The position numbers were made by a program, and so were the translations under genes. The notes beneath the pieces were generated by a model. It made no database searches, was not told where the DNA came from, and saw nothing but the letters and a program-made list of their open reading frames with translations. From a virus (Duplodnaviria; Caudoviricetes), in IMG/VR virus record IMGVR_UViG_3300037308_000440, positions 1 through 64,000 of that record: 64,000 nucleotides of DNA; one strand, 5' to 3'. Positions 13,230 to 13,321 of this stretch are shown here, one piece after another. Each line of letters starts with the position of its first letter. The stretch's first letter is position 1.

Positions 13230-13321
13230 GGGGGATGTCATAAGGACGAGCTGGTGCTGTCGTCGGGCTGTAAACTCGATCCCATACGGGCAAGGCGTTC
13301 GATTCGACCCATCCCCCACCA
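13230..13321 (+). tRNA. Atypical tRNA with GTA (Tyr) anticodon and 8-bp acceptor stem
   Basis: GGGGGATG/CATCCCCC-A-CCA; TCGGG-CT GTA AA-CTCGA; TTCGATT T-loop; D-arm GAC(G)AGC-TGGT-GCTGTC. Confidence 0.75.

Follow-up and report, generated by a model that had tools for sequence, protein, structure and literature searches.

A tRNA-Tyr(GUA) gene on a conserved non-canonical 8/4 frame in giant phages and bacterial tRNA arrays

The tRNA gene and its surroundings

The window analyzed here is the whole 64,000-nt stretch of DNA from an 86.4-kb contig, a fragment of a freshwater virus record that is estimated to be 28% complete. ARAGORN called 19 tRNA genes and a tmRNA on the 86.4-kb contig, and none of these calls was for tyrosine. 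The sole Tyr candidate across the whole contig was a 92-nt gene at window positions 13230 to 13321, so a statement that the first-pass annotation had made for the window extends to all 86.4 kb. As elsewhere in the tRNA array, the gene closes with ACCA; its G+C content is approximately 60%, versus 30.6% for the contig. Its parts, together with two other features of the window, are as follows.

1 to 52, plus strand: partial tRNA gene (T arm, acceptor strand and CCA); the contig starts inside its 3' part
12651 to 13229, plus strand: endonuclease gene (zinc finger plus DUF1064/PD-(D/E)XK type) whose stop codon lies immediately before G1 of the tRNA
13230 to 13321, plus strand: tRNA-Tyr(GUA) gene, 92 nt
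13230 to 13237, plus strand: 5' strand of the acceptor stem, 8 nt starting with G1; pairs with 13310 to 13317 over 8 bp
13238 to 13244, plus strand: connector UCAUAAG between the acceptor and D stems, 7 nt (2 nt in canonical tRNAs)
13245 to 13261, plus strand: D arm; 13245 to 13251 form six Watson-Crick pairs with 13256 to 13261, with G13248 bulged
13252 to 13255, plus strand: D loop, a UGGU tetraloop
13262 to 13280, plus strand: G26, the anticodon arm (5-bp stem) and U44
13268 to 13274, plus strand: anticodon loop CUGUAAA, with the anticodon GUA at 13270 to 13272
13281 to 13293, plus strand: variable arm, a 3-bp hairpin of CCC, an AUAC loop and GGG, then CAA
13294 to 13309, plus strand: T arm; 4-bp stem GGCG with CG..CC, loop UUCGAUU, A13307 bulged
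13310 to 13317, plus strand: 3' strand of the acceptor stem, paired with 13230 to 13237
13318, plus strand: discriminator A73
13319 to 13321, plus strand: encoded CCA

The first acceptor pair of the gene is G1-C72. The variable region is 14 nt long and contains the 3-bp hairpin, and in the T stem positions 13294 to 13297 pair with 13305 and 13306 and with 13308 and 13309, leaving A13307 unpaired. A G26-U44 pair could add a sixth pair to the anticodon stem. The parts listed by the first-pass annotation are all present where it had placed them (8-bp acceptor stem, 7-nt connector, and a singly bulged D stem of 6 bp that closes a UGGU loop), and the GUA anticodon, G1-C72, A73 and the short variable hairpin are likewise seen in the sequence.

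ARAGORN made no call at 13230 to 13321, and Rfam at gathering thresholds, the RF00005 tRNA model included, gave no match there. A sensitive Rfam scan of 251 nt returned a single match at the gene, to tRNA-Sec, with 28.1 bits against a cut-off of 47. The tRNA-Sec model gave the ordinary tRNAs of the contig 23 to 40 bits, a range that includes the score of the Tyr gene; thus, the match means that the gene is tRNA-like and not canonical, and nothing further. Nothing on the 86.4-kb contig reached the tRNA-Sec cut-off. Thermodynamic folding of the gene by itself showed no significant stability (z = -1.38), and the structure of lowest energy was not a cloverleaf. Support for the fold is comparative, with no help from single-sequence folding. 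Promoter and terminator scans near the tRNA gene gave nothing above shuffled expectation.

The product of the upstream gene (12651 to 13229) matched Pfam DUF1064 with an E value of 1.3e-6, as well as PHROG endonuclease and Holliday junction resolvase families. On the other side, directly 3' of the tRNA gene, the region from 13380 to 13640 (plus strand) has a G+C content of 45 to 51% in a 30% G+C genome and contains a 56-aa acidic, Cys-rich open reading frame (13382 to 13552), followed by a predicted long hairpin. The open reading frame had no match in Pfam or PHROG, the region had no credible Rfam match (best E value, 0.8), and a homologue was absent from the related loci that were compared. 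This region could encode a small zinc-binding protein or a structured RNA.

Two further observations concern the array. It extends past the contig start, since window positions 1 to 52 are the 3' part of a tRNA gene. Additionally, a second tRNA-like gene that was missed by ARAGORN and by Rfam at the gathering score lies at 7425 to 7495 (plus strand), with an acceptor stem of 7 bp, a very small D hairpin, a long anticodon stem, the loop CUCAUAA (anticodon CAU), a GGGG/CCCC T stem with the loop UUCGAGU, and ACCA one base past the 3' end of the acceptor stem. Its scores were weak, at 16.8 bits with the tRNA-Sec model and 19.9 bits with the second family covariance model (R2) described below. The array has no called tRNA-Met or tRNA-Ile2, and this gene carries CAU.

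Relatives and comparative evidence for the fold

Exact and near-exact patterns taken from the D and anticodon arms of the window copy returned nothing or only 33 chance matches in coding DNA. Blastn searches of the element and of its 2-kb surroundings against cultured and deposited phage records found no homologue; apart from brief chance matches, they returned only similarity at the tRNA level to two uncultured phages of 735 kb; the helper protein at 13655 to 14026, used as a query, led to no related loci. The relatives were reached through the neighboring Pth2-like gene, which led to 33 related giant-phage loci, and a simple descriptor scan of these loci yielded two homologues with the same odd plan. 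Patterns of the shared features, which required AUAAG and CCC/GGG, were then searched. They identified 31 viral contigs with the frame (many from records of 100 to 345 kb), 10 loci in bacterial genome assemblies (mostly soil Alphaproteobacteria metagenome-assembled genomes [MAGs]), and at least 90 candidates, comprising at least 65 distinct sequences, in metagenome contigs. Overall, the phage and tRNA-array sequences with this frame number well over a hundred.

A first covariance model was built from eight members and, over 866 kb of tRNA-rich loci, it scored the family at 53 to 107 bits and all other tRNAs at no more than 38 bits. The second model, R2, was built from 34 relatives with the window's own sequence left out. 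It gave the window gene 96.8 bits over its full length (E value of about 4e-23), with every modeled pair standard, while the best ordinary tRNA in the window had 31.6 bits. The family alignments were model based; a MAFFT alignment was set aside because the gap for the variable connector fell at column 1 and broke the acceptor register. ARAGORN missed 22 of 30 family members.

Among 31 distinct sequences, 98.3% of the pair cells held standard pairs and 20 of the 25 pairs showed compensatory changes, so the covariation in homologues that the first-pass annotation had named as a check is present. None of 500 shuffles reached the observed pairing and covariation values, and sliding the partner by 1 to 3 columns reduced pairing to 36 to 53%. 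RNAalifold predicted the same fold on its own, with the connector unpaired. All eight acceptor pairs are kept in the family, seven of them with compensatory changes, and the eighth, which occurs as three pair types, is standard in 31/31 sequences. The outcome that the first-pass annotation had named as refuting its reading, folding of the homologues as standard 7/5 tRNA-Tyr, did not occur: the alternative pairs of a 7/5 reading were found in only 2/12.

The first-pass annotation had described the T stem as imperfect. The irregularity is real, but the stem is not merely imperfect, since a 4-bp stem with a bulged purine is kept and covaries in 19 of the 32 aligned members, the window's included, with the extra nucleotide in the 3' strand. 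Under a model of 4 bp plus the bulge, 75 of 76 cells were paired in the 19 bulged members, and the bulge was always A or G; the T-stem cells were 99% paired. A continuous 5-bp T stem, which would give the 8/5 plan of tRNA-Sec, failed at two pairs (1/19 and 2/19 paired). Thus, the frame is 8/4 with a bulge and not 8/5. Of the earlier proposal of a tRNA-Sec-like frame, the long acceptor stem and the long D stem with its tetraloop stand, whereas the tRNA-Sec frame proper does not: the branch is 8 plus 4, or 12 bp, with a bulge, the discriminator is A73 and not G, and the variable stem has 3 bp.

The connector is 7 to 8 nt long in all members and always ends in AUAAG, a motif that the search patterns required; the one member found by the model alone also has a connector ending in AUAAG. 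The CCC/GGG variable stem is invariant and was also required by the patterns, and it neither supports nor contradicts pairing. The invariance of AUAAG and CCC/GGG is therefore partly forced by the search. All five modeled pairs of the D arm show compensatory changes, the D loop always contains GG, and all five pairs of the anticodon stem covary. A pseudoknotted fold without the D hairpin was set aside in view of the covarying D hairpin; moreover, the connector is not complementary to the loop of the variable arm, which varies freely.

The form with the bulged T stem also occurs in dense tRNA arrays (11 to 27 tRNA genes in 8 kb) of bacterial MAG contigs of up to 963 kb, mostly from Alphaproteobacteria (L096, L100, L103, L106, L111, L112, L114 and L120). 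Three MAGs with the frame were checked, and a canonical tRNA-Tyr with the same G1-C72 and A73 was present elsewhere in each of them. The odd copy is dispensable in such bacterial genomes because they also hold the canonical tRNA-Tyr.

A 345-kb phage record with terminal repeats (L076) has three genes with a Tyr anticodon close together at 964 to 1985 (minus strand): an unbulged 8/4 form at 1897 to 1985, an ARAGORN-called tRNA-Tyr at 1811 to 1895, which the family model scored at only 34.8 bits, like non-family tRNAs, and a bulged 8/4 form at 964 to 1053. Between the latter two sits a 47%-identical homologue of the window's endonuclease (L076:1092-1520, minus strand), directly upstream of the bulged gene. 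A weaker homologue (27% identity; L075:1118-1600, plus strand) lies about 600 nt upstream of a bulged 8/4 tRNA-Tyr. One possibility is that the endonuclease is a homing enzyme of the free-standing kind, either moving together with this tRNA region or targeting it.

Tyrosine identity

With patterns that did not fix the anticodon, GUA was present in each of the four new viral matches and in all metagenome candidates among the matches listed (at least 90). The anticodon loop CUGUAAA was found in 32/32 aligned members and is the same in the canonical tRNA-Tyr of the same MAGs. The discriminator was A in 31 of 32 aligned rows, the exception being L077, which is aligned one base out of register. G1-C72 was present in 30/31, and CCA (as ACCA) was encoded in 27 of the 32 aligned members. 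C1-G72 replaced G1-C72 in L073:1522-1613 (plus strand) and in 4 of 84 metagenome members among the matches listed; in archaea and eukaryotes, C1-G72 is the pair with which tRNA-Tyr begins. With GUA in a C32-U33...A37-A38 loop, A73, G1-C72 and a class II variable arm, the gene has the features of a bacterial-type tRNA-Tyr; the canonical 7/5 cloverleaf that RF00005 and tRNA finders recognize is absent.

Of 21 arrays holding at least 10 tRNAs, 20 had a family member as their sole Tyr gene. In other giant phages, which have the Pth2 module but no family member, an ordinary class II tRNA-Tyr of the 7/5 type is present instead, and one such canonical phage tRNA-Tyr (L135) shares the UCCC-N3-GGG variable arm with the 8/4 family. 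Together, the ordinary tRNA-Tyr of these relatives and the shared variable arm point to descent from tRNA-Tyr and not from tRNA-Sec. We found no TyrRS/TrpRS-type gene in the contig, nor in four family-bearing phage records, of which two are complete; thus, the charging enzyme would be that of the host.

These results show a conserved, structurally constrained tRNA frame that is tied exclusively to GUA and Tyr-type acceptor features. The original observation is confirmed and its first interpretation is supported in part; as the sequence stands, the Tyr anticodon and the TyrRS-type acceptor end agree with the non-canonical Tyr decoder that it had put forward.

Interpretation and comparison with known tRNAs

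We consider it probable, judging from sequence comparison, that the gene encodes a working elongator tRNA-Tyr(GUA) from a giant phage, with a non-canonical frame that is conserved. Stacking of the 8-bp acceptor stem on the 4-bp T stem keeps that arm at the normal 12 bp, and the D loop of 3 to 4 nt keeps the GG needed to dock on the T loop. The additional connector nucleotides (AUAAG) probably fill the tertiary core that the tiny D loop leaves empty. The tRNA would be cut out of the transcript of the tRNA array and charged by the tyrosyl-tRNA synthetase of the host, which would recognize A73, G1-C72, the anticodon and the variable arm, and it would then read UAU and UAC for the phage. EF-Tu reads the T stem where the bulge lies, and the bulge could weaken delivery to the ribosome. 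Activity of an 8/4 tRNA-Tyr is likely but not assured, because 8/4 and 9/3 tRNAs work in E. coli translation, yet an 8/4 tRNA with an extra loop (E-loop) at the same junction was not charged in vitro by the E. coli enzymes tested, GlyRS or ThrRS (Mukai et al. 2017; PMC5389517).

Both the 12-bp branch (8-bp acceptor plus 4-bp T stem) and the long D stem with a small loop, which characterize the (8/4) non-canonical tRNAs, are present here. The closest descriptions concern phage (8/4) tRNA-Ser and tRNA-His, which were found through tRNA-Sec searches (PMC5389517); they share with the present family the 12-bp arm of 8-bp acceptor and 4-bp T stem, a location in phage tRNA gene clusters, and the retention of a cognate anticodon and identity elements. 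In contrast, the family described here has Tyr identity (GUA, A73 and G1-C72), a connector of 7 to 8 nt where theirs has 2 nt, and a purine that bulges from the T stem's 3' strand. The text of PMC5389517 names phage 8/4 forms with Ser and His identity, along with modified 8/4 forms for Cys and Sec. An (8/4) tRNA1 with an E-loop between the acceptor and D stems is reported from soil polycistrons by Mukai et al. 2017 and in PMC7609411, the latter being the review by Krahn et al. 2020 of the irregular 8/4 tRNAs of Mukai et al. 2017. It resembles our family in having extra unpaired nucleotides at the same junction and in being encoded in runs of irregular tRNAs, whereas its anticodon is GCU, its discriminator is U73 and its identity is ambiguous, and it is the RNA that the E. 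coli GlyRS and ThrRS tested did not charge; the two loops are compared here by description. The selC* tRNA-Cys and the minor (8/4) tRNA-Sec of Mukai et al. 2017 also combine an 8/4 frame with a T-stem bulge, but their bulge, A51a, is in the 5' strand (49 to 53) and not in the 3' strand, and they differ from the present tRNA in anticodon, discriminator and variable-arm length. Relative to these accounts of phage Ser/His, tRNA1 and selC*/minor Sec tRNAs, the 8/4 tRNA-Tyr family is set apart by its Tyr identity, its conserved AUAAG connector and its 3'-strand T-stem bulge.

Two canonical classes provide the other points of comparison. Like the class II tRNA-Tyr(GUA) of RF00005, the gene has CUGUAAA, A73, G1-C72 and a short variable hairpin; the canonical form, however, has a 7/5 arm, a 2-nt connector, a D stem of 3 to 4 bp and a large D loop, whereas here the D loop has 3 to 4 nt and the connector is long. 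An acceptor stem of 8 bp and a D stem of 6 bp with a 4-nt loop are found as in bacterial tRNA-Sec (RF01852), but the 13-bp (8/5) arm, the UCA anticodon reading UGA, the G73 and the long variable stem of tRNA-Sec are all absent.

A different role has to be weighed for an RNA that standard tRNA finders reject and whose bacterial carriers keep a canonical tRNA-Tyr too: it could be a tRNA-shaped decoy or regulator that is made, and perhaps charged, but does not decode, and instead soaks up or misleads a host factor such as a tRNA-Tyr-directed defense nuclease or sensor. In line with this, the PtuAB effector of retron-Eco7 is known to target tRNA-Tyr (PMC11555353), and some irregular 8/4 tRNAs are described in PMC5389517 as charged but unused, or uncharged, in E. 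coli. However, the anticodon loop is canonical throughout and does not vary, the 12 bp that translation requires of the acceptor/T arm are retained, the gene encodes CCA, and the 20 of 21 large arrays in which a family member is the sole Tyr gene otherwise have near-complete tRNA sets, so that we regard a nondecoding role as improbable. A73 is also the discriminator for LeuRS in E. coli, and the long variable arm and the Sec/allo-like D arm would suit a class II body charged by SerRS or LeuRS that recodes UAY as Ser or Leu. According to PMC5389517, SerRS accepts 8/4, 8/5 and 9/3 frames, and allo-tRNAs, thought to be charged by SerRS whatever the anticodon, span 35 anticodons. Allo-tRNAs combine a SerRS identity of G73 or U73 with a long variable arm and unrelated anticodons, whereas here the discriminator is A73, the variable stem has only 3 bp and only GUA is found; a strict linkage to GUA in every member is unexpected if charging ignored the anticodon, and systematic replacement of Tyr by Ser or Leu would damage all phage proteins. 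Recoding therefore appears very unlikely.

The proximity of the endonuclease gene, whose stop codon abuts the first base of the tRNA and whose homologue lies beside the same tRNA type in L076, might suggest a tRNA that was damaged or remodeled locally by its neighbor, as the first-pass annotation had proposed, or a decaying pseudo-tRNA, which would also be missed by ARAGORN and the Rfam tRNA model. Against this, every stem of the window copy is intact, and the frame is an old one that many unrelated contigs lacking this endonuclease retain with compensatory changes; since it is present in dozens of loci without that gene, remodeling of the tRNA by the endonuclease is not supported. The divergence of the homologues also argues against recent copies of one element, and we give decay or local damage almost no credence. 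Equally far-fetched is a derivative of tRNA-Sec serving a candidate selenoprotein gene on the same contig: the weak Rfam tRNA-Sec match is what would favor it, but that 28-bit score lies within the range of ordinary tRNAs, the contig has no match at the tRNA-Sec cut-off, a GUA anticodon cannot read UGA, and A73, the 12-bp branch and the 3-bp variable stem all differ from tRNA-Sec.

The reading as a functional tRNA-Tyr leaves room for a tentative extension, to which we assign a low probability, namely that the remodeled body (8/4 arm, bulged T stem, AUAAG connector and tiny D loop) is a counter-defense design that keeps TyrRS, EF-Tu and ribosome function while evading host enzymes that destroy tRNA-Tyr in the course of infection, such as effectors of the retron-Eco7 PtuAB type. 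A role of this kind for the altered body is plausible because the PtuAB effector of retron-Eco7 degrades tRNA-Tyr and a tRNA-Tyr gene of phage T5 gives protection from this effector (PMC11555353). If it were true, the escape would be based on shape rather than on the anticodon loop.

Our literature search found no description of an 8/4 tRNA-Tyr. With this family, tyrosine joins the few identities known on the 8/4 frame, in combination with a long connector that is conserved and a bulge in the 3' strand of the T stem. Since most members (22 of 30) escape standard finders, numerous giant phages and bacterial arrays will have been wrongly recorded as lacking tRNA-Tyr, and such misannotation distorts inferences about codon supply and host dependence. 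If the tRNA is active, it illustrates the extent to which a tRNA core can be reconstructed without loss of a given synthetase identity, and natural frames of this kind are of interest to genetic-code engineers as possible orthogonal scaffolds. Finally, because tRNA-Tyr is a known target of a bacterial defense system, the shape of this tRNA may bear on the conflict between phage and host.
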